Numbered from the stretch's first letter, positions 22,211 to 47,491 are shown. The stretch: 52,459 bases of DNA from a bacterium (GCA_965233585.1 CBDDTI010000593.1:1-52459), one strand, 5' to 3'. Made by a program: numbers and translations. Notes: generated by a model from the sequence alone, not told the origin.

Positions 22211-23437
22211 AAGTCTTTGGTGGCAAATGTAGTGGGGGCAAAATTACTGGGGGCAAATAGGATAGGTGGCAGGTGTCTGGAGGCGTGTCAGGTGGCAACA
22301 TTGCAGTGACATCTGTCGTAGAATCTAAAGAAACAATAGAAATTCAACAAACCCGAATTATATTTCCTCACGGATGATGAGGTCACTTCCAGTGCTCTAG
22401 GCAGAAAAATATCAATGGTTGGAAGGGGCCATTTTTGTAATGTTCACCAAATAAAGCTGAAAAATGAATTGTATCATATAAAGACTGGCAATGCTACGCG
22501 CTGCTGCCTGTTAAGGCTCCAAAAATAGACCACGCCAGAGTTAAATATTTCGAACTATCTTTGTGGTGTCTGGCCAGGTGGCAACCTTATTGGGGAGAGT
22601 GGCGACTCCTGTAATACCAGCTTCTGCAACACAACCTGCTGACCAACGGAGAAGGTAAGAAACATGGAATTGCAAAGGAATAGTTCAAGGTAGTAGAGGC
22701 TGGAAACAAAGCTGGGCAAAGCCTTTTTGAATTGGCATGGTCTAAGTACATGCATTTCTAATCTGTAATGTGTTTTCTGTGACATGAACATTGGGAAGGT
22801 GTATACTTAAAGGAATGAATTTTGAGGACTGAATTTTGAGCAAACACCTACGCGACAAAAATGATAATGGTTATGAAAAATGGCAATGAATTGGCAGTGA
22901 AATTATAAAAATTTTTAGACCACATGAAAAGGGTCTAATCATCAAACTATTTACATATATTTTTACCCAAAATTCAATGATCAAAAGTCATTCATCAATA
23001 GGTGTTTCATCAATATACATGCTGCCAACACAAAAACATTACAAGTTAAAAATAACTGGCTGTAGATGACAGCACCTAATAATGGGAGGGGATCAGTTTT
23101 GAAATTTTGGATGGAGAGGGACATTCTTCCCTGGCATGCAGTGAGGCCATTTACTAAATAGTGACAGAAGTACAAAAATCTATAATTTTCAGGTGCCTTA
23201 AAAAATTGCTTTGTTTTTTGCAATGTTGTAGTATTTTCAGTAAAACATCACCACTTTTTGGCATGCAAATTGGACCAGAATGTCAACACGACAAGAAAAG
23301 TATTCGGCCAAAGGCCGAAAAAAGTTTTTGAGTTTTTCAGTTGAAGTATCCTGGTTGTGCTTTTTTGAGAGCCCTGTGGTTTAAAAATCTTACGTTTTTA
23401 AGGCAGTGTATTTTTTGTTAAGTGAGCATGTGTTTTT

Positions 23438-23661
23438 GTATACAAAGCGACCTCTACGGATCTAAAAATAGGCGCCATCGGTCTACGCGTAGACCGTTTG
23501 AGACTGAATCGGCCTTAAATGATCTAAAAAGACCTCAAAACAGTCTGCTTGCAGGCTGCACGTAGACTGAATGGCACCTTCCTGCAGCCTGCAAGCAGTC
23601 CGTTTGAGACTGAATCGGCCTGAAATGATCTAAAAAGACCTCAATACAGCCTTCCCGCAGC
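23438..23661 (+). repeat. Left terminal inverted repeat (224 bp)
   Basis: GTATACAAAGCGACCTCTACGG...CCTTCCCGCAGC; reverse complement of 46897-47120 with no mismatch seen. Confidence 0.95.
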
Positions 23662-24339: not shown

Positions 24340-25354
24340 TTATACAATTCTGTTTAACATGGGAAATTTTTTTAATTTAATTTTTGTCTTCATTTTCATT
24401 AGTTTATCATCCATTTTATCAAGTGCATTAATGTTTACGTAAAAAGGATTTTTAGCTAGTCTATTCAATCTGATTATTGGGTTCCTAAGTTTAAATTTTC
24501 TATCTCCTGCTTTTAACGCCAATTTCGATTTATTCAGTTTAACTGTGGGGGTCCTAAGCAAAAGGCTTGTATCTTCCGGTTTTAACCCCAATTTTGATTT
24601 ATTCACTTTAATTGTGGGGGTCCTAAGTTGAAGGTATGTATCTTCCGGTTTTAACCCCAATTTTGATTTATTCAGTTTAACTGTGGGGGTCCTAAGCAAA
24701 AGGCTTGTATCTTCCGGTTTTAACGCCAATTTTGATTTATTCAGTTTAACTGTGGGGGTCCTAAGCAAAAGGCTTGTATCTTCCGGTTTTAACCCCAATT
24801 TTGATTTATTCACTTTAATTGTGGGGGTCCTAAGTTGAAGGTATGTATCTTCCGGTTTTAACCCCAATTTTAATTTATTCAGTTTCACTGTGGGGGTCCT
24901 AAGCAAAAGGCTTGTATCTTCCGGTTTTAACCCCAATTTTGATTTACTCAGTTTAACTGTGGGGGTCCTAAGCAAAAGACTTGTATCTTCCGGTTTTAAC
25001 CCCAATTTTGATTTACTCAGTTTAATTGTGGGGGTCTTAAGCTTAAGGCTTCTATCTTCCGGTTTTAACCCCAATTTTAATTTATTCAGTTTAACTGTGG
25101 GGGTCCTAAGCAAAAGGCTTGTATCTTCCGGTTTTAACGCCAATTTTGATTTATTCAGTTTAACTATGGGGGTTCTAAGCTGAAGTTTTCCATCTTCCGG
25201 TTTTAACGCCAATTTTGATTTATTCAGTTTAATTGTGGGGAGTTTAAATTTTTGCATTAATCTTAATGGTTTTAATTTTGTCGTAATCATTTTTCTTTTT
25301 TTCTTTAGAATTATTTCATCATCATCATCTTCCTCGTTCCAGCGCCTTTTCCCT
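24340..25354 (-). CDS. Lys/Leu-rich 23-aa tandem-repeat region; probable exon 2 of the 26498 gene
   Basis: 11 copies of TPTVKLNKSKLGLKPEDTSLLLR (69-bp unit); ORF start at 25371 is TTG; joins upstream ORF in frame via GTAAG...AAG intron 25355-25419. Confidence 0.75.
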
Positions 25355-25419
25355 CTTAATGTGGGAGGCAAATAAAATGGCAGTTCTCTTAACTCAGTCG
25401 TCGGATTTAGTCTCCTTAC

Positions 25420-26882: not shown

Positions 26883-27569
26883 TTACATAGATACGTGATA
26901 GGTTTTCATCGGATATTCGTGAGGGAAAATGTGACTTCTTAATCGCACCAAATTGTTTTGTCGCTGATGAAAATCAAGCAAGAGGTATCCGTAAGGACGA
27001 TTGTTGGTAGCCAAACGATAGGCTTCATTTAATAAAAAATTTCTCCCGGGAAACACTTGTTTCGACAGTTGAGATATGGAGCTTTGATCTCTGGGGTTAT
27101 TGAACAAAACCATATATTGGGTGTTGATGCTCAGTGTTCGAAGTTCATTTTTGGCATTGAATAAGTTTTGACACAGGAAAATGGTGAAACAATGATAGTG
27201 GTGAGTAAGGACCGTAAAAAAATGCTTTAAAACCGATCCTACTTCGTCTAAATAATCATCGAACACTACCAGTTTCGGAGCTTTTTTCGGCAACATTTCT
27301 AATATGTCTTTTATTTCCTCCACGGAGGAAGGTATCGATGCAAATTTAAAAAAGCGAGTTTCGTTTTGATCTTGATTCATCTGTTGGTCCATGTCCTCGT
27401 AAGCCTTCTGCCATTCTTTGTAAAATAGTATCATGTACTTTGGTACTTCGGCAAACATGATTTGGCGATTTTCCACTAGTCTCTTTAACCACGATGTTTT
27501 CCCGCTGGAAGTAGGTCCTACCGCCAACATGTTGGATGGCAGGAAAAATCGCACATCGAATCCGCCCAT
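26883..27569 (-). CDS. Genome-packaging ATPase (FtsK/A32-like)
   Basis: Walker A GPTSSGKT, Walker B LVVFDD, downstream HH, QNLF, RTLSIN and RPYGYLLLD motifs typical of Polinton ATPases. Confidence 0.93.
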   Translation of the reverse strand: MGGFDVRFFLPSNMLAVGPTSSGKTSWLKRLVENRQIMFAEVPKYMILFYKEWQKAYEDMDQQMNQDQNETRFFKFASIPSSVEEIKDILEMLPKKAPKLVVFDDYLDEVGSVLKHFFTVLTHHYHCFTIFLCQNLFNAKNELRTLSINTQYMVLFNNPRDQSSISQLSKQVFPGRNFLLNEAYRLATNNRPYGYLLLDFHQRQNNLVRLRSHIFPHEYPMKTYHVSM

Positions 27570-27623: not shown

Positions 27624-30600
27624 TTACGGCTTACATAGATGATGTCTTTTGTATCTCTTAATATACACACTGCCCAGGGCCAATGTACATTTGCCGCAAG
27701 GTAATATATATCTTTTTGTGTCCATAGAAGAGAGGGCAATTTTCCGCCGAAAAGTTGTGCTGATTCGATGGTTCTTTGATGCCAAATGGGTAAACGTTTT
27801 GTAGGTCAATTTGCTATCGATCAAACATTTTTCATAATCTTCGAAAGAAAGTTGATTTTGGATGCTCGTTCTTTTCAATCCTTTGCAAACTTTTTTTTGA
27901 GCTTCTTTTTTACTATTTAAATTTTTTATTTTCATGGCGTAACATTTCGGTCTTAATCCGATAAAATCGGTAATGGCCGACTGACCTTTCAGTTCGTCTT
28001 TAAAATAAAACAAATGATTAGCTCTGCTGTTGTTGTACAGTACGTGATTCTTATTGTACTTGGAAAAGTCGAACATGTGCTCCATTTCTTTCAGTTTATC
28101 GATCAAATTGCTGCACTTGACTTGAAACAAGAAACTATCCGTATCCGAGAAGCATAATTTTAAATTTTTTGCGCCAAATTGTTGCCGAAATTTATCGTAA
28201 GATCGAAACATGAATAATTTGGATAATTCTAAAATCGCAAATCCGGTAGGGGTGGGTTTATTCAGGGTGATGAAATCGGGCTTTTTCATCACCGCTACCA
28301 AATTTTCGTTGATGATCTTAAAGTTGGAAACGTGCTGTCCTAGGCACGCTTTTCGTAGACTTTTTTCATTATCACACAAAATAATGCTGGTGTAATTTCG
28401 TGCGTTTTCTGAAAAAATATCCATGATATCAATTGATCATTTTTTGTTTTAAAAAAAAGGAGGAAAACATAATTACCTATGAATTTCCCGAAAGTTGAGT
28501 TGGCAAAAAGTTTGAACAGCCGAAGTTCAAATTCTGTTTCTGCTTCCGATCTTAGTTTGGTGATTTTTGTAATGAAATTTTTCAGGAAATCTTTTTGGAT
28601 AAATTTTACCGCTCTCCTTATTTTTACCAATTTTAACCCTTTTTGAAGATAATACTGCAAATTGTCCAATAAAACCACATACTTCTTCCGCGGATAAAAT
28701 GTGGCTAAAAGTTTTTTGGAATTGTACTTCTTTCTTCGGTAATCTCGGTAGTTTTGCATTTTTAGAACCTGTCTGTTGAACGGAGATAAGTTTTTAAAAT
28801 CAATTTGTCCGTTGTAGGGAGCTAGTGGAAATTGATCATCTCGCTGATAAAAAAATGGGAGAAAAAAATTTAATTATATTTTTTTCTTTGATAAAACTGA
28901 GAATATCCTTTTTCTCTTTTATCATCATTACCTTGTGATATTTTTTGGGATAGATCATATCAACTTCAAAGGCGTAGCCTGTTTCTCCCTGCGTTGGAAT
29001 GTTCAAAATGTCTTCGGCCGTCCATGATTGGAGTTGTTTCTCCGACACCCACTCGAAATTTCCCACGGGTAGTTTAAACGTTTCACAACTTCCATATAAA
29101 TTATTAGCTAGAAATATGATGGAGGGGGGAAAAAAATCAGATCGAATTTTTCTTTCTGGCTATATTTTTTTACTTACCGTCAACATAAAGCAGATGATTC
29201 CCCGGTGTTTTAGGATCTTCGTTTCCCTTCGCTCGCCTGGTCGATATAAAGCTTTGCCCTCCTCGTATGCCTTTATTGAAAAACTGTTCCATGTCCGGAT
29301 CATGGAGCAAATCTAATGAACCAAATGGTTTTTCGGTTTCGTCCTTATTTTCAGTCTTTTCCTTTTCATAGTACATTTTCAGCATAATGTCGAAAGATAA
29401 ACCGGGTATGCCTATATAGAAAAAAATGTTTTTAAAATAAATGAACCAAATAAATTTTTCCATTTTTTTCAAAAATATCTAAACGTACCTAAGTAATAAA
29501 TCGGGTCCAATTTAAAATGATGTAATACCATTTCCCGATATTTGACGAAAACTTCTGCCAGCAAAATGACATCCAGTCCGCAGTATAACTTCATGTAATC
29601 CTCCATCGTTCGACATTGGAAGAATTTAAAGACTTTTTTCCCGTGTTGATAGTCTTCAACGGAAATCCCCGCGTCGTTTAACGTCGAGTGAAACTCTGCT
29701 CGAGATGGGAACGTGCGACTATTTTTAATATGCTCGAACGAGGAAAAAAATTCGTAAGGGTAAACGCCTTTTCGCTTTAATAATTTTACAGCGGGGGGTT
29801 TTTTACGGTGCTTCAGCTTTTGTAAGACCTCAAATTGGCGAAGAAGGGGGAAATTAAAATTGTCATCTTTACACAGGTCCGATACCAGAGCATCCAGACT
29901 CGAAGGGATGTGTTCCAAAGAATCTTTTATTTGAAATCGGCCGATGGAGAGCGTTCTAAATTTTTCCTGATTCCTGGCCATAACTTTGGCTTTAATTTTC
30001 AGTTTTTCCAGCAGCAAATTTATGTCGTATCTGAAATGATTGAGGGGAAACGAGTCATTGTCACAACATGTTGTGGACATGAAAATATTCTTACCCCTGA
30101 GCGTTATGAAAATACAGCGGCGTCAAGAAGGGTCCCTGTCTCTGAAGATTGCAAATAGCGTGTGCAGCTTCGACGATTTTCCCCGAAACATGATCGTGAT
30201 CTACCACTTTTCTATACCGGAAAGATCGGCTTTCAAATGGTTTTTCGCAAATGTGACAAGTTTCGGCCCGGTGGTAAGCGTCCCACTCTAGGGGGGAGGC
30301 TACTATTTGGCTTACTTTTCTAAATCTTTGTTTTCTTTCTTCTACCAATCGTTCGTAATCCGTTAACTTGTTCAGAAAACGCTCAACCGCGTCCTCCCCG
30401 CTGTAGGTTTCTTGGAAAAAAACGTCATTTTCCGAATCCACGAAACATATGGAATAAGCGCAAGGCTTATGCCGGCATTGTTCTACACTGGCTGACACAT
30501 CACATTGGCACGAAATTGGGTTCTTATTACATTTTTTACACTTCACCTTTTGGCCCTGATCGCCTTTTTCCATGAAACATTCGAAATCTGCGAATCCTAT

Positions 30601-31302
30601 CACCGGGGCTTTGAAAGCGTTCTTTTGATTTCGATAGTTTATGCTGTCCCCCTCGTTCGGGTAAACGATTCTTTGTTTATCGTTCTGACAATAACGCCGA
30701 TGAACGTTCTTTTTCCTCCTTGATCGAAATCGAAGCAGACACATTTCGCAGTAGTGGTTACTCACTCTTTTTTTGTTCGGCGAACAGCTGAAGTTTCTCA
30801 TGTTCAGGTAGGCGTTCAAGTTTTTGATGGTAAAAAAGTGGTACTGGTGTTGAATTTGACGCAAGGTAGAAATGGATTTCGTATTGATGTCGTGCGGATC
30901 AGCCCCGATGTACGAATGATCGTATTTCAGCATGAGCAAGTTTAAAATGTTTTTTGTCTTGTTTTTATCGTTGCTCCGGTTGGAAAACGTGTCCAATATA
31001 CTCACTTCGTTTTCGCTGTCGAACAGCACTCTAATGTTCAGTTTTAAATGTTTATTTTTTTGCACAAACTTGTTGATCTGCTTATACGGCAGGGGGAAAT
31101 TTAACCCGTCAAGATTAAAGCGATCTAAATATTCAGTGGGAATGTTTTTAAAATGAGTAATGTGCGCCGTTTGAAGGGGCCATAAATGACGAACGACGCA
31201 ATACAAAAAGTTTTTTTCATCGTACACAAAATTCCATTTCACACTTTTGCAATTCAATAATGTTTTGGAAATGATGATCGATTTGGAGTACGACGGCTTC
31301 AT
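27624..31302 (-). CDS. polB: Protein-primed family B DNA polymerase, 6 exons, 1103 aa, with vOTU-like and EndoVII/HNH regions
   Basis: Exons 31302-30095, 30030-29489, 29411-29178, 29107-28932, 28843-28477, 28408-27624 (3312 nt, in frame). Motifs: ExoI FADFE, EndoVII CHIC..DHDH..CN, ExoII FHNAQGYD, KGVYPY, ExoIII YCGLD, YVDANNLYG, KLFANSTFGK, FSDTDS, RPKCY. Confidence 0.93.
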
Positions 31303-31320: not shown

Positions 31321-31983
31321 TTACAATACGTTGGAAGAGTCGTACAACACTATATCACAATATTTAAGAGTCTGAAAACGCCAACCCGATCCCCTGGTCA
31401 ATAAGTCTTCCTCCCTTTTGGCAGCCCCCCTCAGCATTGACCTAATTCTATTCCTACGCTGTCTCTCGCTCTGATATCGATTGAACAACAGACCTTTTGA
31501 TCTTAGAGCCAACGTATCGTTATCAACGCTTTTATTTTTCTCTCCCGTTTCTTCCTGGCTCAGATCAGGGATCTCGTAATCGGCAAAAATGACTATGCTC
31601 ATCCTAAAAACGGTTCTGACCGCTGTTTGACTTCTGACCAAATTATTTATCGTGTTGACCGTTCCATTAGAGGAGCAAAAATTAGCAAGCGAGGTGTTAT
31701 TTTCTTCTAAAGACATTCGGTAGATGACGACTTTTTGAGAAATTGAGCTTCTCGAAGTAAAGGGGAGTAAAGATTGATGTTGAGGAGACCACATGTGCTC
31801 AATTAATTGGTCTTTATCTTGGAAAAAAAGGTCGCAAAATGGGCAATCTTTTTTGGAAGATGAGGATGGGGTGACGGCAATAATTTGCTGTTCATCGGAC
31901 GGATGTTTTTTTCTCAAATGTCTGTTTAAATTGTTTTTTCGAGAGAAGAAAATATCACACTTTTCACACTTGTAAATTTTCAT
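31321..31983 (-). CDS. Two C2H2 zinc fingers plus putative terminal-protein domain (normally the PolB N-terminus)
   Basis: CEKC...HLRKKH and CPFC...HMWSPQH; C-terminal RGSGW motif characteristic of the N-terminal region of Polinton pPolBs; first ATG at 31983 (32037 is GTG). Confidence 0.75.
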   Translation of the reverse strand: MKIYKCEKCDIFFSRKNNLNRHLRKKHPSDEQQIIAVTPSSSSKKDCPFCDLFFQDKDQLIEHMWSPQHQSLLPFTSRSSISQKVVIYRMSLEENNTSLANFCSSNGTVNTINNLVRSQTAVRTVFRMSIVIFADYEIPDLSQEETGEKNKSVDNDTLALRSKGLLFNRYQSERQRRNRIRSMLRGAAKREEDLLTRGSGWRFQTLKYCDIVLYDSSNVL

Positions 31984-32192
31984 CTCGTTATTACGACAGG
32001 AAAAAAAGGACGATAAACAATTTGATTTTTTTATCACGATGTTTATTTCGCTTGAGATGCGGTAACCGACTGAATAAAATTTCTCAGACGATGATGATGA
32101 TGTAGAATACGAGTGAGTGAGGGCAAGAAAAGAGGGGAAGGGGTTAGAACGAAGAAAAAATATATAACAAAGGAAGGAGGGGGTAGCACAAC

Positions 32193-35851: not shown

Positions 35852-36412
35852 TTATTCCGGCACCGCTTTTAGCTTATCACACAATGATTTTATTAAATAT
35901 TGTACAATTTTTTCGTTATGGTTTAAATTTTGACGAGAGAAAAAGTTTGAAAAATATCGTGGATCGCAACTTGAATAAATGGTAACCATCATACAAAAGG
36001 CGGCCGTGTACCACCCGCAAAACAAGGAATTAAAATTCTGGACGGGATAGGTGAGCACGCGCCTTATCGTAACATTCTTCCGCCTTTTCTTCCACCTTTG
36101 CAATAAGTTCATTAAATGATGATTATGAGCGGGCGGAGGTAGAGCGTAACTGTCAAAATACCAAAGATTTTTCCCCTTGATGTAAATAGCGATAAAATGC
36201 CCGCCCGACCGATGAGAGGGGGATAGATTGACGATAAAACACTTCCCCCCATGATGAACGTTGAATAATTGCGGGGGGACGAGGTCTACGGAGAAAACCC
36301 CCGCAAAATGACGATGGTCTAATTGACGTAAGAATTTTTCCAAGACATCGTTTCTTAACCCCTCGTTGGTCACGACCGACTCGTTCCCCATGTTATGAAT
36401 CGGCGACCTCAT
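35852..36412 (-). CDS. Adenain-like cysteine maturation protease
   Basis: GVFSVD, IVNL, GGHF (His), YFDSY (Asp), Q..NSLFCG (Cys); start may be the second ATG at 36391. Confidence 0.93.
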   Translation of the reverse strand: MRSPIHNMGNESVVTNEGLRNDVLEKFLRQLDHRHFAGVFSVDLVPPQLFNVHHGGKCFIVNLSPSHRSGGHFIAIYIKGKNLWYFDSYALPPPAHNHHLMNLLQRWKKRRKNVTIRRVLTYPVQNFNSLFCGWYTAAFCMMVTIYSSCDPRYFSNFFSRQNLNHNEKIVQYLIKSLCDKLKAVPE

Positions 36413-37742
36413 CGGTTCTGATCACCTGACCTCCGTTATCAATTTTCAACCCGGAATTGAAAATGGAATAGGCCAGGAGATAAATAGGATGGGTTTTGGC
36501 TGTTTTGAAACCCAATTCGACGTCCAACTTCCCCTTTTCGTCCGGGTGGATATGATAACTATTGCAACGGTCGGGGGTGAAATCCGCCGTCAGAAAACAC
36601 CGACCCTTCTTAAAAGCCTCCATGCTTACGCTGCAAGTGTAGTTGGAAATGCCGTAGCCGATGCTGTCGTACATGTGTCGATACAAATCCAGGTAATTGT
36701 CGTTGTCAAAATCGGGCTGAAAAGCCTTCGGAAAGACGCATTGCCCATTTTTGATCACGTTAAAGTGATTTAAATCGAAATGTTGAAAGTTGAAGGGGTT
36801 TCTCGAGCTGCTCTGCGACAGGGCCTGGTTGTGAATCATGCACATAATGAGTTGTTTGGGGAGAATTTGAGAAGCCACGTTGGTGACCGTGTAAGTCGTC
36901 ACATTGGCCGGAATGACAAAAACCTTGAATTGCGTCATTTTGTAGGGTATGTAACACGGCTCCCGGCTCAATTTCAGCGTGAAAGCATCTCGCTGTTGAG
37001 CGGAAGGGAGAACTTTTCTCATTTTCAGCTTCAAATCCTTCAACTGGACGACATAGGTTTTCCCGACCTCGTTGTGCAGAATACCGAATTGGGGATGGGC
37101 TCTCACCAACTTTATCTTGATATCCACATTCGGTGGAAGATATTTATCGGTGTACATGATATCAGCCCCCAAGCGCGAGCAAAAATACACCTTTTTATGA
37201 TCCGTCAATAAATCTCGGCGAGCGGTCAAATTTGTATTACCAGTGGGATCGTTTTTTTCGATTTCCTCCGGTTCTTCGACGAAATAACCTTCGCTTTTTA
37301 ATTGGCATTTTTTGCTCTCCAAATCGTAAGACAACTCCGTCTGGATAAAATTTCTAAACGGATAGGCGTTGGCGGTGCTTTGATCGCAAACTTGCACGCC
37401 GTTCAGGTAAATTTCCACTTGGGAGAATAAGTTATAGGCAAAATTATTAGCCAGAAAAACTTTATGGTCGTCCTCCACATCTCCTGCGGCACCATCTTGC
37501 TTGACAATAAAATGTCCGATCAGTCTGGTTTGGTCCAAAATGAACGAACATTCCGCGTCGCGAGGGATCAGGAATTCAACGGGTCCCGCGTTGGTCACGC
37601 TGGTCACGCTATCGTAAATAACATCCGATCCCTTTTCTAAACTCACATCAACCCCCAGGGGCGAATGCAGATCAAGAGCCTGTTCGATAAGATCGTCTTG
37701 CTCGAAACCTAATCCCGCGATACCGCCCCTATTGTCGGACAT
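36393..37742 (-). CDS. Major capsid protein 1 (Polinton double-jelly-roll type)
   Basis: 449 aa; LFSQVEIYLNG, YPF, KYLPPNVDIKIKL, NPFNFQHFDL, DFTPD motifs typical of Polinton MCPs. Confidence 0.88.
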   Translation of the reverse strand: MSDNRGGIAGLGFEQDDLIEQALDLHSPLGVDVSLEKGSDVIYDSVTSVTNAGPVEFLIPRDAECSFILDQTRLIGHFIVKQDGAAGDVEDDHKVFLANNFAYNLFSQVEIYLNGVQVCDQSTANAYPFRNFIQTELSYDLESKKCQLKSEGYFVEEPEEIEKNDPTGNTNLTARRDLLTDHKKVYFCSRLGADIMYTDKYLPPNVDIKIKLVRAHPQFGILHNEVGKTYVVQLKDLKLKMRKVLPSAQQRDAFTLKLSREPCYIPYKMTQFKVFVIPANVTTYTVTNVASQILPKQLIMCMIHNQALSQSSSRNPFNFQHFDLNHFNVIKNGQCVFPKAFQPDFDNDNYLDLYRHMYDSIGYGISNYTCSVSMEAFKKGRCFLTADFTPDRCNSYHIHPDEKGKLDVELGFKTAKTHPIYLLAYSIFNSGLKIDNGGQVIRTDEVADS

Positions 37743-37861
37743 GATCGAGGAAGAGTAATTTTTTTATTTTTATTTTTAAAAGTTTATTTATTCAATATTT
37801 TTTCAACTGATACACCTTTGCCCTTAAATAGAGACATGCGGCTCGGGGCAGGGGAATGCGA

Positions 37862-39298
37862 TCAATAATATCTCTTTTGTACCTGACGGTCTTTACCGAT
37901 CAAAAGAAGGGCGTTGTACACGGCGTAAGAAAGCAAGGTATAATCCGATTGAGCCAACTTGCTAAAAGTCAAATCCAATGCAAGAGAACCGGATTCGGAG
38001 TTATGGTTGTGAAAAGAATGGCATTTGTCGGGCGTTAAATCGAAAACCATAAAAGTGTATCCTTTTTTGTAATTGTCAAGGGTGACTCGATTTCTGGTGT
38101 TGACATTACTTTGAAAATGGTCGTACATGTGCACGTAATCCCCATTGTCAAAATTGCAACGCATGATGCGCGGTAGCAGAGGTTTACCGTCCTTTTTCAG
38201 CATGACGGAAGAAAGGTTGGCATCTGAATAATAAAAGGGGGAATCGGTACATACATTCCTGCCTAACAGCCTGCTCCGGACCAGGGCAAAAACGATCTGC
38301 ACAGGCATTTTTCTGCCCGCGTTAATGAAATTGGCGCTAAAACTGAGAGAGCCGAAAGGGATGTTATAAAACTTTAGCTGCGTGTCCTTGTAAGGTATAA
38401 CACAGGGCGAATTTTTTTCGTTAAGTGAAACGTTGATCCTGTTGCGCACGCGTACGGTGGTTAGCGCCTTTCGCATCCGTAACTTTACATCTTGTAAACA
38501 AATGTTGTAACGGTCATAAGACGTGGATTTGCTTATTAGCCCAAACATGGGATTAAACCTCCGCAATTTTATATTGATTTCCACATTAGGGGGCAGATAC
38601 TTGTCGGAGTAGAATATATCGGCGGGAATGACCGTGCTAAAGTAGACCTTTTTTCCATTCATGATACGGTTGTGATTTTCTACTAATCGAGGGTCAGTCA
38701 AAGCCGTATCCAAGGTACGTTCGGAGACAGTCCCCGTAGCCGTATCGGTGGGTTCATTTCCATCCTCGTCCATCTCAACCTCCTCAGCAACGTCTTTAAA
38801 TACCAACTTAAACTCATTTTTCCTTTCGGCGGTGTAGTATCCTTCCGTTTTAAAAAGGTAATTGGAGACGGAAAAGGGGTAGGATAAAGTTACATCGATA
38901 TTGTGTTTGAACGGGTAGGAGACGGAAGCGCTGAGATCGCACACTTGAGTGCCGTTGAGATAAACCTCTATTTGTGAAAAGAGACAGGCCCCATAGTGAT
39001 TGGCTAGAGTAACCTCGTCTTTCTCATCTAAAAATTTCCCCTTGAGATCTTTGACCACAAAGTAGCCCTCCAATCTGCTTTGATTCAGCAAGAAATGACA
39101 CTCCGGATCGGGGGGGATATGAAATTCAACATCCCCCGTCTCCTCGATCGGTGAAACGCTGCTATAAATAACAGTACGACCGGATATTAAATCCACTTCT
39201 TGTTCCAAAGGCTTATGCAAGTCCAGACTCTCTCCTTTCAGCTCATTAAACTCCACATTCAGCCCTCCGATACCGCCGCGAGAGGTGGCGGAAGTCAT
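37862..39298 (-). CDS. Major capsid protein 2 (divergent paralogue)
   Basis: 478 aa; shares RGGI.GL, LDLH.PL, LFSQ.E.YLNG.QVCD.S, DKYLPPNV, D.TPD.C.S.H with MCP1; extra acidic insertion. Confidence 0.85.
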   Translation of the reverse strand: MTSATSRGGIGGLNVEFNELKGESLDLHKPLEQEVDLISGRTVIYSSVSPIEETGDVEFHIPPDPECHFLLNQSRLEGYFVVKDLKGKFLDEKDEVTLANHYGACLFSQIEVYLNGTQVCDLSASVSYPFKHNIDVTLSYPFSVSNYLFKTEGYYTAERKNEFKLVFKDVAEEVEMDEDGNEPTDTATGTVSERTLDTALTDPRLVENHNRIMNGKKVYFSTVIPADIFYSDKYLPPNVEINIKLRRFNPMFGLISKSTSYDRYNICLQDVKLRMRKALTTVRVRNRINVSLNEKNSPCVIPYKDTQLKFYNIPFGSLSFSANFINAGRKMPVQIVFALVRSRLLGRNVCTDSPFYYSDANLSSVMLKKDGKPLLPRIMRCNFDNGDYVHMYDHFQSNVNTRNRVTLDNYKKGYTFMVFDLTPDKCHSFHNHNSESGSLALDLTFSKLAQSDYTLLSYAVYNALLLIGKDRQVQKRYY

Positions 39299-39914
39299 GA
39301 TGATAGAAGCGGCGGTTAACCGAGATGACTACACGATAAGTAATATTAAAATCAGCTGCGTCATTGCTATAAAAACTGCGAATCTTCTACTCTTAAATAG
39401 CGATGATAAGAATGTGAAATATTTTGGAAATTTTATCGTCGTTAGAAGAAACAACTTTGTTTACAGCATTTTCAGAAAAAGAAAAAAATCCATCAGAGAG
39501 ACGAATAAGGAAAGGAACGGCGGCGACGCGGTCTTGTATCATATCAACATCACCAAAATTCCGTCGCCTGACCAAATTGCGTCTTCCATCGACAATTTGA
39601 AAAACATCATCCAAAACGAGTATTTTGTGATGACCAAGATAATCAACAACGTAACGTGCACCTACGATACCAAATTATCGTCCATCCCGCTGTTAGATTT
39701 GATAGAGGAATTGAAGGAGAAAATACCGTCGGTGAAGCGGGTGAGATTTAATCCGGAAAGATTTCCGGGAATGTTTATTTCATTTCCGGACAACACCTTG
39801 TTAATTTTTTCTTCCGGCAAAATGGTTGTAATCGGCGGTAGAAGCGAGCGGGTCAATCTTCATAGCATCGGTGAAATGGTCAAATTTTTAAAAATGATCC
39901 AAGACCGGAAATAA
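39297..39914 (+). CDS. TATA-binding-protein-like factor
   Basis: RFNPERFPGMFI...TLLIFSSGKMVVIGGRS matches TBP repeat consensus (YEPELFPGLIY...LLIFVSGKVVLTGAK); ISNI and INNV match the NxV/I strand opening each repeat; first ATG 39297. Confidence 0.87.
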   Translation: MMIEAAVNRDDYTISNIKISCVIAIKTANLLLLNSDDKNVKYFGNFIVVRRNNFVYSIFRKRKKSIRETNKERNGGDAVLYHINITKIPSPDQIASSIDNLKNIIQNEYFVMTKIINNVTCTYDTKLSSIPLLDLIEELKEKIPSVKRVRFNPERFPGMFISFPDNTLLIFSSGKMVVIGGRSERVNLHSIGEMVKFLKMIQDRK

Positions 39915-39981
39915 AACACATATATAAATGACGATCGTTAATGAGATAAAATTGCAGTAAGACATCATCCTCGGGACACGC

Positions 39982-40704
39982 ATGTATTTTCAAAACTATT
40001 GCCATCATTGTCCACATCCAAGGCCGGTGAACGATGTGAGTAACGGCTTTCACGTTTGTCAAGATTGCGGAAAAGTATTGGGACCAGTGTACGCGGAATC
40101 GGCAATCGCATGTCATACGCCCCGATTAGAAAGTCCCAATCAAAACTCATTCGAAAAAGACCTGTTGGAGCGAATATGTGACAAATGCTACATCAACGAT
40201 GCGGAATTAATTCGTGTCATAAACCATCAATGGTCGGACCTTAAACGCCAGAAGAAAAAAAACCTTCACAACGTGGAAGCTTTGATGCTTGTCGCCGTTT
40301 TTTTAGCCTTGGTAAAAAGTAAAGTGCCGAGACCTGTGCAACACTTGTGCCAACTGACCAGCATCGAGCCCGAAAAAGTGTGGCCCCTTCTAAACCCGCA
40401 AGAATTTTATTTCCAACCCAGTCTGATGTGCGAATACTTTCTTAAAGGGCTGAACCTGTCTTTCAAAGATGTTGAATCGATAAGAAAAAGAGTCAAATTT
40501 TACGAAAGAAAGATCGTGTTTTCGCCGCAAACAATTATAGCCGCCTGCGCTTACACCTTTCTAAGAGAAAATAAAATGACTTATACTTTATCAGGGAGAG
40601 AAACCCCAATTACTCGCCTGACCTTCGTGGGATTGGCCAAAGAATTAGGTATCAGTCCTATGGCGCTGAATAGATGCGTGAAAAGATTAACCGCCGTAGA
40701 GTAA
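39982..40704 (+). CDS. TFIIB-like factor
   Basis: N-terminal Zn ribbon CPH...GFHVCQDCGKVL; cyclin-repeat motifs VAVFLALVKSKVPR and SPQTIIAACAY; C-terminal LAKELGISPMALNRCVKRL helix-turn-helix. Confidence 0.85.
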   Translation: MYFQNYCHHCPHPRPVNDVSNGFHVCQDCGKVLGPVYAESAIACHTPRLESPNQNSFEKDLLERICDKCYINDAELIRVINHQWSDLKRQKKKNLHNVEALMLVAVFLALVKSKVPRPVQHLCQLTSIEPEKVWPLLNPQEFYFQPSLMCEYFLKGLNLSFKDVESIRKRVKFYERKIVFSPQTIIAACAYTFLRENKMTYTLSGRETPITRLTFVGLAKELGISPMALNRCVKRLTAVE

Positions 40705-40749: not shown

Positions 40750-41169
40750 ATGAGATATCATCGAGGGCCCGCGGTACAGCAAGGCGCGGGATTAGGTTCT
40801 ATTTTTAGCGGCTTAATTCGAACTCTGGCGCCGGTGGCCAAAGGCGCCGTAAAATCAATCGGTCGAATTGTAAAAAGTGACGGTGCCAAATCGGTGGGAC
40901 GGTATTTAAAAAAGGAGGCCACTAGGGCAGCCGTTGACACGGCCTTAGAAGCGTTGGAAGGTAGACCCGTTGGAAAAGCCGCCAAAAATCGATTAAAGAC
41001 CGCTACCAAAAACATACTCTTGAGCGGGAGACAGGCCGTCGCGGCTAATTCTAGCAAACGGCGAAAAGTGAAACGAAAAAATGTAAAATCATCGGCTGTC
41101 AAAAGGAGCCGACTAACGCGATCGAGGCCGTTGTTTGAAGATTACGAGGATGACGACGAGGATTACTAA
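40750..41169 (+). CDS. Small basic virion protein with QxGxG site and amphipathic helix (adenovirus pVI-like role inferred)
   Basis: QQGAGLGSIFSGLIRTLAP motif typical of Polintons; KRRKVKRK basic patch; acidic tail. Confidence 0.8.
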   Translation: MRYHRGPAVQQGAGLGSIFSGLIRTLAPVAKGAVKSIGRIVKSDGAKSVGRYLKKEATRAAVDTALEALEGRPVGKAAKNRLKTATKNILLSGRQAVAANSSKRRKVKRKNVKSSAVKRSRLTRSRPLFEDYEDDDEDY

Positions 41170-42238
41170 GGACGAATTTATCGAAGCTTACACCCGACCC
41201 GGCTCATCTCTCGCTTTCTCCTCTCCTTACCGGGCTTTTAAACAATTTAAGGGAGAAATCCCGCTAAGCAAAATAAAAAATTGGATGCACGGATTGGACA
41301 GTTACACCTTGCACAAACAAGCCAAATCCGCCAGACCGAGGAATCCGACCTATTCCTATTACAAAAGGTATCAGTTTCAGATAGATTTGATCGAATTAAC
41401 TGAGTCAGTGTCGAGCGCCAATGATGATTACCGGTATTTGTTAACCGCCATCGATATATTTACTCGGTACGCCTTTGTCGAGCCGTTAAAAAATAAAAAA
41501 GCATCCACTTTTTTGGAGGGCTTCAAACGCATCGCGGAAAGGGCCCTTACCTTACCTCAAAGAATTCTGGCTGACAGAGGCGCGGAGATCAAAAATAAAT
41601 CTTTCGCGGACTATTGCCGTCAAAACAGAATAAAACTTTTACACAGCGATAATTATATTCATGCGCCGTTTATAGAAAGATTCAACAGAACTTTAAAAGC
41701 CTTAATGTACCGATACATGACTTCGCGCGAAACGGAGCGATTTATCGACGTGTTACCCCGTTTGGTGGAGACCTACAATTCGCGAGAACATCGCATGATC
41801 GGGATGTCGCCCAACGAGGCCGAAAAGGAAGAAAATGCCAATTTGGTACGGGAAAAACAGGAGGAAAATTACGCGAAAAGAACGAGAAAAACGCCTAGAT
41901 TTAAGGAAGGGACGACGGTCAGGATAAGCAAATTGAAAGGACAATTTGATCGGGGCTTTGACGAACAGTTTCACGAGGAAATTTTCAAAATTAAAAAAGT
42001 ATTCACCCGTTTGCCCATTCCGACTTATCAGCTGGAAACTTTTGACGGAGACGAAATTATCGAGGGAAATTTTTACGGAAATGAGTTGGCGGAGGTGGAT
42101 CCTCCCGAACTTTTTAAGATTGAAAAGATAATACGACGAAAAAGAGATTCAAAAACGGGGAAAAAATTGGTCTTGGTGAAATGGCGAGGGTACCGAAATC
42201 CCAGCTGGATACCGGAAAGTGACGTAGTCGATATATAA
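41150..42238 (+). CDS. int: Retroviral-like (rve) DDE integrase with C-terminal chromodomain
   Basis: QIDLI, IDIFTRYA, ADRGAE, IERFNRTLK; chromodomain FKIEKII...LVKWRGY..PSWIPE; first ATG 41150. Confidence 0.95.
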   Translation: MTTRITKDEFIEAYTRPGSSLAFSSPYRAFKQFKGEIPLSKIKNWMHGLDSYTLHKQAKSARPRNPTYSYYKRYQFQIDLIELTESVSSANDDYRYLLTAIDIFTRYAFVEPLKNKKASTFLEGFKRIAERALTLPQRILADRGAEIKNKSFADYCRQNRIKLLHSDNYIHAPFIERFNRTLKALMYRYMTSRETERFIDVLPRLVETYNSREHRMIGMSPNEAEKEENANLVREKQEENYAKRTRKTPRFKEGTTVRISKLKGQFDRGFDEQFHEEIFKIKKVFTRLPIPTYQLETFDGDEIIEGNFYGNELAEVDPPELFKIEKIIRRKRDSKTGKKLVLVKWRGYRNPSWIPESDVVDI

Positions 42239-46896: not shown

Positions 46897-47120
46897 GCTG
46901 CGGGAAGGCTGTATTGAGGTCTTTTTAGATCATTTCAGGCCGATTCAGTCTCAAACGGACTGCTTGCAGGCTGCAGGAAGGTGCCATTCAGTCTACGTGC
47001 AGCCTGCAAGCAGACTGTTTTGAGGTCTTTTTAGATCATTTAAGGCCGATTCAGTCTCAAACGGTCTACGCGTAGACCGATGGCGCCTATTTTTAGATCC
47101 GTAGAGGTCGCTTTGTATAC
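46897..47120 (-). repeat. Right terminal inverted repeat (224 bp)
   Basis: Reverse complement of 23438-23661. Confidence 0.95.
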
Positions 47121-47491
47121 CGGCAAATCCTCCGCCGTCGGCTACAACAACACCCACGGCTGCGGGACCCGATCGACCAGATGAAAATCGTGACACATAC
47201 GCACGGACCACAAGGAGCGGCCGTACCGTTCGCCGCACCGCAAGATTCGAATGAAACCAAAAGAGTAAAGTGTTCTCGGTCGAGCATCTTATTTTTCGTT
47301 TATTCCCTTATATTTCACATTATATTGAGTATGACCTGTGGGGCTGACACTGGGGGGGGGTCATGTAGCGGTAGAGGGAGCTCCCTTTTCCCGCATCAGC
47401 CGACGATCGACAGCTGATAGTCAGTTAATATAGAGAGTCCAGACTGCCAACACCTTTTCTCTCTTGATTGTGGACGGATTCTCCCTCCACA
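47121..47491 (+). mobile_element. Gypsy 3' internal fragment, PPT and short LTR (LTR 47364-47491)
   Basis: Diverged direct copy of ~51382-51756; G-run PPT followed by TG...CA LTR. Confidence 0.8.

Follow-up and report, generated by a model that had tools for sequence, protein, structure and literature searches.

Homologues of both TBP and TFIIB are encoded by the giant viruses (Nucleocytoviricota), whose genomes range from 100 kb to megabases and most of which encode their own multi-subunit RNA polymerase. Small mobile genomes with a TFIIB-family factor also occur among archaeal viruses and integrated elements, where host and polymerase are archaeal and the lineages are unrelated to the one described here, and we know of no TBP gene that accompanies these archaeal viral TFBs. 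TFIIB is mentioned in the accessible part of a paper on thaumarchaeal integrated elements (PMC6563490). According to the sections available of two further papers, the late TBP mimic of beta/gamma-herpesviruses (BcRF1/ORF24/UL87) acts on TATT boxes, the EBV major capsid promoter having TATTAAA (PMC4893493; PMC7162547), and this mimic, in which a distant TBP fold forms one domain of a larger protein, works with five other viral proteins and with no TFIIB homologue (PMC4893493). Closest to the present case, Starrett et al. (2021) gave the gene label 'TBP' in their Figure 5 to a MELD virus with an adintovirus-like PolB, and in the available text of that paper the word TFIIB is absent and there is no conservation, pairing or promoter analysis (PMC8502044). 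The novelty entertained in the original prediction is reduced to the extent that the TBP label was already in print, but it stands in that no report of TFIIB, or of a TBP plus TFIIB pair, in such elements was found in the accessible parts of the literature searched.

The locus described here lies in a window of 52,459 nucleotides (the whole stretch of DNA analysed), within which perfect 224-nt terminal inverted repeats bound an element of 23.7 kb. The element is of the Polinton/Maverick (adintovirus-like) type, an integrated virus-like transposon, and its host is a eukaryote, probably a marine animal; the contigs belong to a metagenome bin and chimerism is possible. No target-site duplication was seen in the bases adjoining both ends, because the six bases outside each repeat end differ. 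Two adjacent, co-oriented ORFs had been predicted inside the repeats and are indeed there. By profile and by fold they are genuine homologues of TBP and TFIIB, and the best explanation, with a probability of roughly 60%, is that they constitute a selected core module of one Polinton lineage that directs host RNA polymerase II. The features of the element are as follows.

23438..23661, no strand: left terminal inverted repeat, 224 nt, 100% complementary to 46897..47120
26883..27569, minus strand: A32/FtsK-like packaging ATPase (228 aa), Pfam Pox_A32 19 bits, below the cut-off of 22.8
27624..31302, minus strand: protein-primed-type family B DNA polymerase gene in several exon-like ORFs, weak Pfam DNA_pol_B_2
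28409..28476, minus strand: intron of the polymerase gene, 68 nt, GT-AG, two frames joining exactly after KLFANSTFGKFI
31321..32037, minus strand: C2H2 zinc-finger protein, a further core gene, Pfam zf-C2H2 38.4 bits, 39 copies
35852..36412, minus strand: putative adenain-like cysteine protease (186 aa), H...D...Q-x6-C pattern read by eye in the translation
36393..37742, minus strand: capsid-like gene 2 (449 aa), putative major capsid protein on its nearest ESM-Atlas clusters
37862..39298, minus strand: capsid-like gene 1 (478 aa), overlapping the TBP-like gene head to head at the start codons
39297..39914, plus strand: TBP-like gene (205 aa from the first ATG), two-repeat saddle
39910..39915, plus strand: AATAAA, candidate polyadenylation signal read from the sequence, overlapping the TBP-like stop codon
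39982..40704, plus strand: TFIIB-like gene (240 aa), zinc ribbon, 26-residue linker, two cyclin folds and C-terminal helix-turn-helix
40750..41169, plus strand: small basic protein (139 aa), always directly after the TFIIB-like gene
41135 or 41150..42238, plus strand: integrase, rve core and C-terminal chromodomain, Pfam rve 44 bits against a cut-off of 32.6
46897..47120, no strand: right terminal inverted repeat, partner of 23438..23661

The TBP-like protein matches Pfam PF00352 over residues 116-196 (1.9e-11, 44.1 bits, cut-off 22.9), and all 41 of the PF00352 matches in the assembly exceed the Pfam cut-off. A phmmer search of the PDB found archaeal TBP 1mp9 at 2.1e-13, the top 35 of 37 sequence matches being TBPs. 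Profile and structure searches had been proposed as the check on both folds, and with the AF2 model (pLDDT 88.1, pTM 0.81) all 44 Foldseek matches at E<=1e-3 were TBPs, aligned over about 205 columns (the whole length) with TM values of up to 0.74. The motifs on which the TBP assignment was originally made, NPERFPG and LLIFSSGK, are present at residues 152-158 and 168-175. The modelled saddle runs S1-(no H1)-S2-S5-H2 and then has a second repeat with all its elements; in the diverged first repeat helix H1 is absent, and a basic insert at residues 65-74 is disordered in the model. The predicted divergence and basic insertion of this repeat are thus real in this copy, but of the 33 family members aligned only 7 have the insert. 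The family profile aligns to TBPs over positions 88-176 only and no similarity was detected by hhalign between the two halves of the protein; the first repeat, undetected by sequence, is recognisable in the predicted structure by its fold only. Conservation across the 14 copies compared is complete for F156-P157-G158, F171, E154, N16, N118 and F59, and F46 is retained in at least 90% of them. F156 and F171 align in HMMER with both DNA-kinking phenylalanines of a TBP repeat, whilst F46 and F59 are putatively the kinking residues of the first repeat, an assignment made from strand register alone since that repeat is recognisable only by fold. From the TBP literature we take these phenylalanines and the central asparagines to have their kinking and central roles on the concave face.

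The evidence for the TFIIB-like protein is of the same kind. A zinc ribbon and two cyclin repeats had been read in its translation, and profile and Foldseek searches agree with that reading. The window copy scores 19.7 bits against Pfam Zn_Ribbon_TF, below the cut-off of 29, and 24.6 bits against HTH_24 at residues 212-237, and the C-H-C-C ribbon ligands (C10, H12, C26 and C29) do not vary among the 14 copies compared. The family profile matched human TFIIB at 1.6e-28, and a Polinton-only profile, built from 14 copies with verified Polinton context, matched residues 98-289 of human TFIIB at 1.4e-17, its 10 best matches all being TFIIB or TFB. In the AF2 model (pLDDT 89.6) the zinc ribbon shows three strands; all 31 Foldseek matches at E<=1e-3 were TFIIB, TFB or Brf, and the core aligned with 1ais_B, 1d3u_B and 1vol_A over about 190 columns at an rmsd of 4.1-4.7. 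In Pfam searches of the wider family the zinc ribbon PF08271 was found in 41 of 52 members and the TFIIB repeat PF00382 in 32 of 52, the latter matching none of the 42 copies of this assembly. Against viral structures the model gave 24 matches at E<=1e-3 with identities of 11-18%, those with a name coming from mimi-, marseille-, pitho-, irido-, asco- and phycodnaviruses, and the rudivirus protein A0A6M3VXQ0 is also among its structural matches.

The B-reader and B-linker segments of cellular TFIIB aid start-site selection and DNA opening. In the window copy they are largely missing between ribbon and core: the linker from the last zinc ligand, C29, to the first cyclin helix at residue 56 is of 26 residues, modelled as low-confidence coil (30-55), and the HMM alignment to human TFIIB skips from about 57-60 to about 98-103, leaving about 45 human residues (roughly 58-102) without a counterpart. 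With so reduced a segment, start-site selection and promoter opening would have to differ from the cellular route. The predicted lack of a B-reader therefore holds for the window copy, but not for the family, as a longer linker with E-x-x-W, a stretch that HMMER sets opposite the human B-reader, persists in 7 of the 14 sister copies; because other lineages retain it, the shortening is not uniform.

The two genes travel together. Comparison of sister elements and of substitution rates had been suggested as a check, and the TFIIB-like gene lies directly downstream of the TBP-like gene in all 40 of the TBP-like matches of the assembly, with a divergent capsid-like gene upstream in 39 of the 40. 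The order is fixed, with protease and capsid-like genes leftward and the TBP-like, TFIIB-like, basic protein and integrase genes rightward; it is the same in all 36 contigs among the matches listed and spans lineages whose proteins are only about 30-45% identical. An independent metagenome contig (L015) has the same gene order with a capsid-like protein that is only 30% identical. The ORFs recovered comprise 39 TBP-like ones of 180-217 aa, free of internal stops, and 41 TFIIB-like ones, of which 39 are of 232-252 aa and two are shorter (133 and 210 aa). That the sister copies are assembly duplicates of one locus is excluded by their sequence divergence. AATAAA is present in 21 of 23 unique TBP-TFIIB spacers. 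Median dN/dS was 0.18 for the TBP-like gene (144 pairs) and 0.23 for the TFIIB-like gene (243 pairs), compared with 0.11 for the capsid-like gene, 0.14 for the protease, 0.16 for the basic protein and 0.05 for the packaging ATPase. On these sequence comparisons the pair belongs to the core of the lineage, as a module under purifying selection in some 40 sister elements, and is not a passenger. Co-folding of the two proteins gave a score of 0.37, against 0.00 for the best of three controls, with contact agreement of at least 88% across runs and a partner pLDDT of at least 83. In the calibration, whose counts hold only roughly as the alignments used were own-made, 116 of 157 solved complexes came up to the mark, as did 2 of 215 mismatched pairs; those that did so at or below 0.60 were only 18 of the 157 solved complexes plus both of the passing mismatches. 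The predicted complex lends weak support to pairing, and the pass may mirror likeness only, because TBP-TFIIB complexes have already been solved.

The placing of the pair between capsid and integrase genes, as originally described, is borne out by Pfam on the integrase side, where the rve match is accompanied by a chromodomain (23 bits, under the Pfam cut-off of 25.1), but the capsid identity has no such match. Neither the two capsid-like genes, which are paralogues with 36% identity, nor 12 of their relatives match any Pfam family; the closest ESM-Atlas clusters to the 449-aa protein are eukaryote proteins of about 450 aa, one nearby cluster having PF21738 (DJR-like_dom) in 15% of its members, and its relatives in Branchiostoma, Trichogramma, Ptychodera and Lytechinus carry the name 'uncharacterized protein F54H12.2-like', which denotes no function. 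On context and this language-model lead, the neighbouring genes are putative capsid genes. The putative protease, with 43 copies in the assembly, likewise has no Pfam match; the small basic protein has 40 copies and the packaging ATPase, which scores 26.6 bits against Pfam ATPase_2, has 48. Pieces of the polymerase gene are conserved in 47-53 copies; its match to DNA_pol_B_2 is weak (E 0.0043, below cut-off), a K-x3-N-S-x-F-G motif is legible in its translation, and a PDB search with one of its exons gave no match.

As had been noted beforehand, no RNA polymerase gene is apparent, with no Pfam match to such a family in the 21 element ORFs scanned. In the preferred reading the pair would be expressed from the element, the TBP-like saddle would bind an A/T-rich box in promoters of the element itself, and the TFIIB-like core would dock on the conserved C-terminal stirrup of the saddle and, via its C-terminal helix-turn-helix, on flanking DNA. 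The zinc ribbon would then recruit host RNA polymerase II, as the element does not itself encode a recognisable polymerase. The spliceosomal-type intron in the polymerase gene implies nuclear transcription by polymerase II. Three boxes stand out in the window.

37821..37831, minus strand: TATT-type box CTATTTAAGGG in the non-coding spacer, preceding the 449-aa capsid-like gene by 79-89 nt
39390..39400, minus strand: TATT-type box CTATTTAAGAG, preceding the 478-aa capsid-like gene by 92-102 nt
39921..39929, plus strand: canonical TATA box TATATAAAT, preceding the ATG of the TFIIB-like gene by 53-61 nt

The placement of these boxes is not random. Of the 27 unique sequences upstream of the TFIIB-like gene in sister elements, 26 have a TATA-like box at -135..-20, compared with 12.5% for random windows, and no such box was found upstream of the capsid-like (0/33), basic protein (0/19) or integrase (0/21) genes; the TBP-like gene itself has no consistent box (8/24). 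The box CTATTTAAGAG lies antisense within the TBP-like coding sequence, over the codons L-L-N-S, and at its site TATT[TA]AA[GA] is kept in 12 of 13 sister copies. In the codons beneath it Leu/Phe is always TTA/TTT and Asn always AAT, and the residue that follows could have an A-starting codon (S, K, N, M, R or T) in all 32 aligned relatives. A CTATTTAAGGG-type box is found in the matching spacers of all five two-capsid lineage representatives, with differing flanks. The 52-kb window holds two exact matches to CTATTTAAGRG, each preceding a capsid-like gene, and either CTATTTAAGRG or GTATTAAAAG stands upstream of capsid-like genes. Across 8 elements WTTTAAGR had 72 matches, of which 22 fall 20-140 nt ahead of an ATG where 4.5 would be expected, counts that are not independent events because the compared elements are related, and per-element p-values were modest (0.22 to 3e-5). 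The genes behind these boxes are mainly the capsid-like, basic protein and ATPase genes and a 124-aa ORF. In a general k-mer screen only A-rich words were significant after correction. Ordinary TBP can also bind TATTTAA-type boxes.

It is less certain that canonical TATA boxes, readable by ordinary host TBP, would drive the TFIIB-like and some non-structural genes, and that the viral pair would read the TATT-type boxes before capsid-like and other virion genes, in the manner of the beta/gamma-herpesvirus late complex. Combining the two gives a possible but doubtful picture, in which animal Mavericks of about 20-24 kb would express their genes in two stages, as herpesviruses do, by means of a minimal viral pre-initiation complex. 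Canonical TATA boxes read by host TBP would first give the viral TFIIB and other non-structural proteins, and viral TBP-TFIIB on TATT-type boxes would later bring host polymerase II to the virion genes; one TATT-type box lies antisense in the TBP coding sequence and another on the sense strand of the TFIIB coding sequence. The redirection of host polymerase II to late promoters by a minimal module, which was the core of the original prediction, we infer from the indirect support of the TATT-type boxes and the intron.

An important consideration is whether binding by the pair would lead to initiation at all. Its members could instead be a decoy or repressor, occupying TATA-type promoters and holding or excluding polymerase II without productive initiation, either to shut down host genes during replication or to keep the integrated element silent. 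The 26-residue linker between ribbon and core, with about 45 human residues unmatched, lends itself to this view, since a TFIIB without B-reader and B-linker might form complexes unable to initiate, and the DNA-contact and stirrup residues are retained as a competitor would need. However, invariant zinc ribbon ligands would be needless for pure promoter blocking, the longer E-x-x-W linker of other lineages shows that the shortening is not general, and virion genes with a box class of their own are a better fit to activation; two genes for repression only are possible in a 20-24 kb genome, but less economical. A decoy is thus the less likely use of the pair, though one to be taken seriously.

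It is improbable that the pair serves some other DNA transaction, such as marking the terminal repeats or an origin for the protein-primed polymerase, or recruits polymerase III or I in the manner of Brf or Rrn7. TFIIB-like cyclin folds do occur in ORC6 too, and the second cyclin-like domain of ORC6 gave weak matches in 5 of 52 family members (best E 8e-4), whilst the fold and profile matches include chains of Brf1 and Brf2 and one metagenome relative is labelled 'TFIIIB Brf1 subunit/TFIIB' by its source. Human TFIIB nevertheless scores far better (67-103 bits, against 21-42 for Brf2 and 19-60 for Brf1), there is no Brf-type C-terminal extension, because the protein ends at the second cyclin fold, and ORC6, to our knowledge, has no zinc ribbon; the boxes, moreover, precede protein-coding genes, and none was found by eye in the terminal repeats. 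Polintons pick up host genes, and the top score of the TFIIB-like profile is with an animal (human) TFIIB, so that recently captured passengers without a role, or even chance ORFs with TBP- and TFIIB-like motifs, come to mind. Such an origin is very improbable given 40 linked pairs in 40, synteny fixed across lineages of 30-45% identity and repeated on an independent contig, dN/dS values of 0.18 and 0.23, whole-length fold matches and 72 TFIIB-like clusters at 50% identity in an exhaustive search. Direction of host polymerase II by the pair is the reading retained, and it suggests a small virus that itself steers the host RNA polymerase.

Compared with cellular TBP-TFIIB (PDB 1VOL and 1C9B; archaeal 1AIS and 1D3U), the element's proteins have the same folds over their whole length and share the FPG and SGK motifs, the C-x-H...C-x2-C ribbon and two cyclin folds ending in a helix-turn-helix. 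Unlike cellular TBP, the element's first repeat is unrecognisable by sequence, is without helix H1 and has an invariant H-x-N-I-T-K strand at the usual SGK-type site; unlike cellular TFIIB, its partner has the 26-residue linker with about 45 human residues unmatched. The proteins are also small (205 and 240 aa) and their genes lie side by side in a mobile element. With the beta/gamma-herpesvirus late complex the proposed model shares a viral TBP fold, host polymerase II and structural-gene promoters marked by TATT. The likeness is functional only and within the model, since both of the element's factors, unlike the herpesvirus mimic, are plain homologues, and no herpesvirus protein was among the sequence or fold matches of either. 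The giant viruses share the two factors, but the element is of about 24 kb and has no polymerase family match. If the two-stage picture is true, no smaller set of general transcription factors would be known from a virus, and the pair may serve as a living model of the point from which the giant viruses built up their transcription apparatus.

The TBP-like and TFIIB-like genes lie within a Polinton/Maverick (adintovirus-like) element bounded by 224-nt terminal inverted repeats that are 100% complementary and begin GTATAC..., and they are a core module of this element, not a passenger. The features of the element that are referred to below are as follows.

23438-47120: the element, between the outer ends of its terminal inverted repeats
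24340-25371, minus strand: 343-aa ORF near the left end
28409-28476, minus strand: intron of the polymerase gene
31321-32037, minus strand: C2H2 zinc-finger gene
36393-37742, minus strand: capsid-like gene (449 aa)
37862-39298, minus strand: capsid-like gene (478 aa)
39297-39914, plus strand: TBP-like gene (205 aa)
39982-40704, plus strand: TFIIB-like gene (240 aa)
40750-41169, plus strand: basic protein gene (139 aa)

The assembly yielded 41 TBP-like and 42 TFIIB-like matches. Directly downstream of all 40 TBP-like matches covering at least 40% of the query, and on the same strand, is a TFIIB-like gene, so that the cassette proposed from the window alone does recur in other elements, and at 39 of these 40 a divergent capsid-like gene is found directly upstream. 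The one TFIIB-like match that has no partner is preceded by a TBP fragment containing a stop codon. Gene order was fixed in 36 of the 36 contigs listed, with one or two capsid-like genes followed by the protease in one direction and TBP, TFIIB, basic protein and integrase in the other, and across the sister lineages identity to the window's proteins is only 30-45%. The copy numbers of the core genes match (TBP 40, TFIIB 41, protease 43, basic protein 40, ATPase 48, integrase 48). The 39 intact TBP-like ORFs recovered are of 180-217 aa and have no internal stops, and 39 of the 41 TFIIB-like ORFs are of 232-252 aa, the other two being shorter (133 and 210 aa). Both genes proved to be conserved and under selection, with dN/dS values of 0.18 and 0.23.

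Median pairwise dN/dS of the core genes (Nei-Gojobori; pairs with dS 0.05-1.5; length outliers of more than 25% dropped)
TBP-like: 0.18 (144 pairs)
TFIIB-like: 0.23 (243 pairs)
Capsid-like: 0.11 (276 pairs)
Protease: 0.14 (236 pairs)
Basic protein: 0.16 (188 pairs)
Integrase: 0.07 (225 pairs)
ATPase: 0.05 (291 pairs)

A scan of JGI metagenomes gave 16 loci, three of which (L015, L016 and L020) were of the element's kind; the remainder were rejected as relatives since they match only the FPG...SGK core, as ordinary TBPs do. L015, an independent metagenome contig of 4.1 kb, has the same gene order, with a TBP-like protein of 169 aa, a TFIIB-like protein of 224 aa and a capsid-like protein that is only 30% identical, and in L020 a capsid-like gene adjoins a TBP-like gene at the contig end. 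Scans of IMG/VR with the TBP-like alignment and with the capsid-like alignment found no relatives. A second class of polymerase and integrase element, with about 33% identity in the polymerase and about 25% in the adjoining integrase, is present on eight contigs of the assembly (C581, C657, C493, C315, C606, C322, C492 and C154) and gave no capsid-like, TBP-like or TFIIB-like match; the module is therefore lineage-specific.

Among the other products of the element are an rve integrase bearing a chromodomain, a C2H2 zinc-finger protein, an A32-like ATPase, a family B polymerase recognised in pieces, and a putative protease in which an adenain-like H/D/Q/C pattern was read by eye. No target-site duplication was seen at 23432-23437 and 47121-47126, flanking the perfect terminal repeats, and its absence may be due to copies having recombined, to joins made during assembly or to another mode of integration. 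The two paralogous proteins of 449 and 478 aa have eukaryote proteins of about 450 aa as their nearest ESM-Atlas clusters, the named relatives being 'uncharacterized protein F54H12.2-like' in lancelet, sea urchin, acorn worm and wasp; Pfam assigned no family to either protein or to 12 relatives, and a literature search on F54H12.2 returned no paper. Their genomic context makes it likely that they are capsid proteins. The tandem paralogues of the window lineage are 36% identical and each is preceded by a TATT-type box; other lineages of the same assembly have a single capsid-like gene. The polymerase gene contains a 68-nt GT-AG intron, immediately after the motif KLFANSTFGKFI, at which two reading frames are joined exactly. 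This intron has a pyrimidine tract and is preceded by the motif K-x3-N-S-x-F-G, similar GT...AG stretches occur at the same position in sister copies, and the gene appears to include further exon-like pieces; one exon of the polymerase, used as a query against the PDB, found no match. The zinc-finger gene is itself a core gene (39 copies), has canonical TATA boxes before its copies in several lineages, and may encode an additional viral regulator. The Gly/Ala/Lys-rich basic protein is invariably encoded next after the TFIIB-like gene, and its N-terminal part may resemble adenovirus protein VI or core proteins. The 343-aa ORF matched the TFIID 18-kDa (TAF13) histone-fold family weakly and below threshold (23.9 bits, cut-off 27; E 4.3e-5), and no stretch of it passed by itself; the ORF is confined to the window's sub-lineage, with one full copy.

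Residues 116-196 of the TBP-like protein match the Pfam TBP family at 44.1 bits (cut-off 22.9), and of the 37 PDB sequences found by phmmer at E<=1 the best 35 are TBPs, headed by archaeal ones (2.1e-13). An AlphaFold2 model built from an alignment of 33 relatives (pLDDT 88.1, pTM 0.81) has a complete second repeat and a first repeat in which the strands and long helix are kept, the short helix is absent and a disordered basic insert occupies residues 65-74, the insert being found in just 7 of the 33 aligned sequences. Foldseek searches of the PDB with the model returned 44 matches at E<=1e-3, all of them TBPs aligned over about 205 columns (TM at most 0.74), and the next match had an E-value near 1e-2. 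By sequence the first repeat is undetectable: the family profile aligns to TBPs only via positions 88-176, and hhalign found no similarity between the two halves of the family. In 14 copies with verified Polinton context N16, F59, H82-x-N84-I-T-K87, N118, E154, F156-P-G158, F171 and G174-K175 are invariant, and F46 is kept in at least 90%. HMMER places F156 and F171 opposite both phenylalanines of the TBP repeat and E154-x-F-P-G opposite the stirrup; judging from the strand register of the model, F46, F59 and N16 may play the matching roles in the first repeat.

The window's TFIIB-like protein taken alone gave a sub-threshold zinc ribbon (19.7 bits against a cut-off of 29), a C-terminal HTH_24 match and no match among PDB sequences, and the Pfam TFIIB-repeat model on its own recognised none of the 42 copies in the assembly. 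Its assignment comes from the family. An exhaustive search of 1.84 billion representatives gave 72 clusters at E<=1e-3, and 65 of the 71 representative matches (the window's own cluster left out) form one linked group; Pfam detected the zinc ribbon in 41 and the TFIIB repeat in 32 of 52 aligned members. The family profile matched human TFIIB at 1.6e-28, spanning the ribbon and both cyclin folds, and a second profile built solely from the 14 copies with verified Polinton context, so as to exclude contamination, matched it at 1.4e-17, the ten best matches all being TFIIB or TFB. The ribbon of the AlphaFold2 model (pLDDT 89.6) has three strands, residues 36-55 are coil, and there are ten helices. 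Foldseek gave 31 matches to the model at E<=1e-3, to TFIIB, TFB or Brf without exception, and over about 190 columns the core matches have an rmsd of 4.1-4.7. C10, H12, C26 and C29 are invariant, and C-H-C-C is the ligand pattern of eukaryotic TFIIB. Between C29 and the first core helix there are just 26 residues, and alignments to the TFIIB-like profiles skip human residues ~58-102; the B-reader and B-linker are therefore largely missing in the window copy, which bears out the earlier suspicion that a recognisable B-reader is lacking. Since 7 of the 14 sister copies keep a longer linker with an E-x-x-W stretch, which HMMER sets opposite the human reader region, the alignments suggest loss from a fuller ancestor.

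As TBP and TFB are native to archaea, the source of the DNA has to be considered. The 12-Mb assembly that includes the window was filed as one prokaryote genome, and the contigs analysed are members of a metagenome bin. Long ORFs cover 85% of its five large contigs (2.9 Mb) compared with 25% of the other 742 contigs (9.1 Mb, the window among them), RNase H and integrase of an LTR retrotransposon of Ty3/gypsy type lie in the right flank of the element, and the Pao/BEL retrotransposon peptidase has 13 matches in the small-contig fraction (best E 8.7e-49), Pao/BEL being a transposon class known from animals alone. For these reasons a prokaryotic or archaeal origin was ruled out: the window is repeat-rich eukaryote DNA binned with a bacterium, and its source is probably a marine animal. 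The assembly is a mixture of five dense contigs and 742 small, repeat-rich eukaryote contigs carrying about 40 Polinton copies, Ty3/gypsy and Pao/BEL elements, and this is not apparent from its stated completeness and contamination figures. A search of the assembly for TBP and TFIIB of the host gave 41 matches to PF00352, which proved without exception to belong to elements, and none to PF00382. A search of sequencing runs listed four that contain this DNA, each from a single sample and study, and none of RNA. Several long imperfect inverted repeats in the left flank, 81-93% complementary (11524-12066/15204-15738 and 9277-9932/17379-18060), have the look of host repeats of foldback or MITE type.

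The two divergent gene blocks are arranged head to head, with start codons that overlap in the window and are 0-10 nt apart in sister lineages, and thus the promoter of each block must sit within coding sequence of the other. At 39921-39929, 53-61 nt before the TFIIB-like ATG, there is a canonical TATA box, TATATAAAT; an AATAAA overlapping the stop codon of the TBP-like gene comes shortly before it. A TATA-like box at -135..-20 precedes the TFIIB-like gene in 26 of 27 unique upstream sequences, compared with 12.5% of random windows, and none was found upstream of the capsid-like (0/33), basic protein (0/19) or integrase (0/21) genes. A second class of box is represented by CTATTTAAGRG, which has exactly two copies in the 52-kb window, both on the minus strand, one 79-89 nt before the ATG of the 449-aa capsid-like gene and the other 92-102 nt before that of the 478-aa gene. 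The capsid-like gene of single-capsid lineages is preceded by GTATTAAAAGAA at a distance of about 84 nt, and that of L015 by GTATTTAAAGAAG at 66 nt. Eight representative elements contain 72 matches to WTTTAAGR, of which 22 lie in sense 20-140 nt upstream of an ATG (4.5 expected), and 27 of 205 matches to TATAWAW lie in the same upstream windows (12.4 expected). The elements being related, these counts do not represent independent events, and the p-values of the single elements lie between 0.22 and 3e-5. WTTTAAGR is borne mainly by the capsid-like, basic protein and ATPase genes and a 124-aa ORF, and TATAWAW by the TFIIB-like and zinc-finger genes, the ORFs labelled o259 and o535, and sometimes the TBP-like gene; the polymerase exon o266 has a TATA-type match in one element, and no named core gene bears both classes in the eight-element listing. 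Other scans gave the following: a strict TATA search over all genes showed overall enrichment of only about two-fold, general 7-mer enrichment upstream of ORFs left only A-rich words after correction (AATAAAC and ATATAAA being suggestive), and a bacterial promoter and terminator scan, irrelevant to a eukaryote, gave the same result as shuffles.

The box of the first capsid-like gene is antisense to the TBP-like codons L/F-N-X and reads TATT[TA]AA[GA] in 12 of 13 sister copies, the codons always being TTA/TTT followed by AAT. Among the aligned relatives residue X is always S, K, N, M, R or T (32 of 32), and each of these amino acids can have a codon that begins with A, a pattern which looks like a constraint on the DNA besides that on the protein. 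The box before the basic protein gene falls in the TFIIB-like codons F-L-R/K-E.

The most likely mode of action is that the virus-encoded pair would assemble host Pol II at promoters of the element itself, and these are possibly the TATT-class promoters of virion genes. Pfam found no RNA polymerase family in the 21 ORFs scanned. Co-folding of the two proteins scored 0.37 against 0.00 for the best control, a value that may reflect likeness to solved TBP-TFIIB complexes, and lends weak support to their pairing. The main rival explanation is that the pair acts as a decoy or repressor, a role suggested by the missing B-reader and B-linker of the window's TFIIB-like copy.

To our knowledge, gene expression in Polintons, Mavericks and adintoviruses is essentially unknown, and these elements are usually assumed to be wholly dependent on host factors. 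From a conserved and selected pair it would follow that a midsize virus lacking an RNA polymerase can nevertheless carry its own promoter-recognition machinery; the finding also offers two concrete promoter classes, and a compact two-protein system in which to ask how TFIIB works without B-reader and B-linker. A search of the literature on these elements together with TBP, TFIIB, TATA or initiation factor did not find the TBP-TFIIB pair. The one relevant published item was a TBP gene labelled in the Figure 5 legend of Starrett et al. (PMC8502044), and the text of that article does not contain the word TFIIB. Within the literature searched, there appears to be no published account of the pair as a core module conserved in Polintons, of its truncated TFIIB or of the two classes of box.

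Apart from one protein of an archaeal rudivirus, every named viral neighbour of the TFIIB-like structure model comes from a giant virus. Giant viruses are already known to have TBP and TFIIB homologues, and the element's pair comprises the same two factors; as giant viruses are traced to Polinton-like ancestors, the pair may have a longer history in the virus realm than has been assumed. TFIIB serves as a giant-virus marker gene in metagenome tools, at least as these are described in PMC11502894 and the BEREN preprint, and so short Polinton TFIIBs could confuse marker screens of metagenomes; the further literature found mentions TFIIB solely as such a marker. A parallel for the promoters is provided by the beta- and gamma-herpesviruses, in which, according to PMC4893493 and PMC7162547, TATT boxes mark late promoters and a viral TBP mimic reads them. 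TATTAAA is present in the major capsid promoter of EBV, and TATT is reportedly bound poorly by cellular TBP. The element resembles them in having TATT-type boxes before its capsid-like genes.
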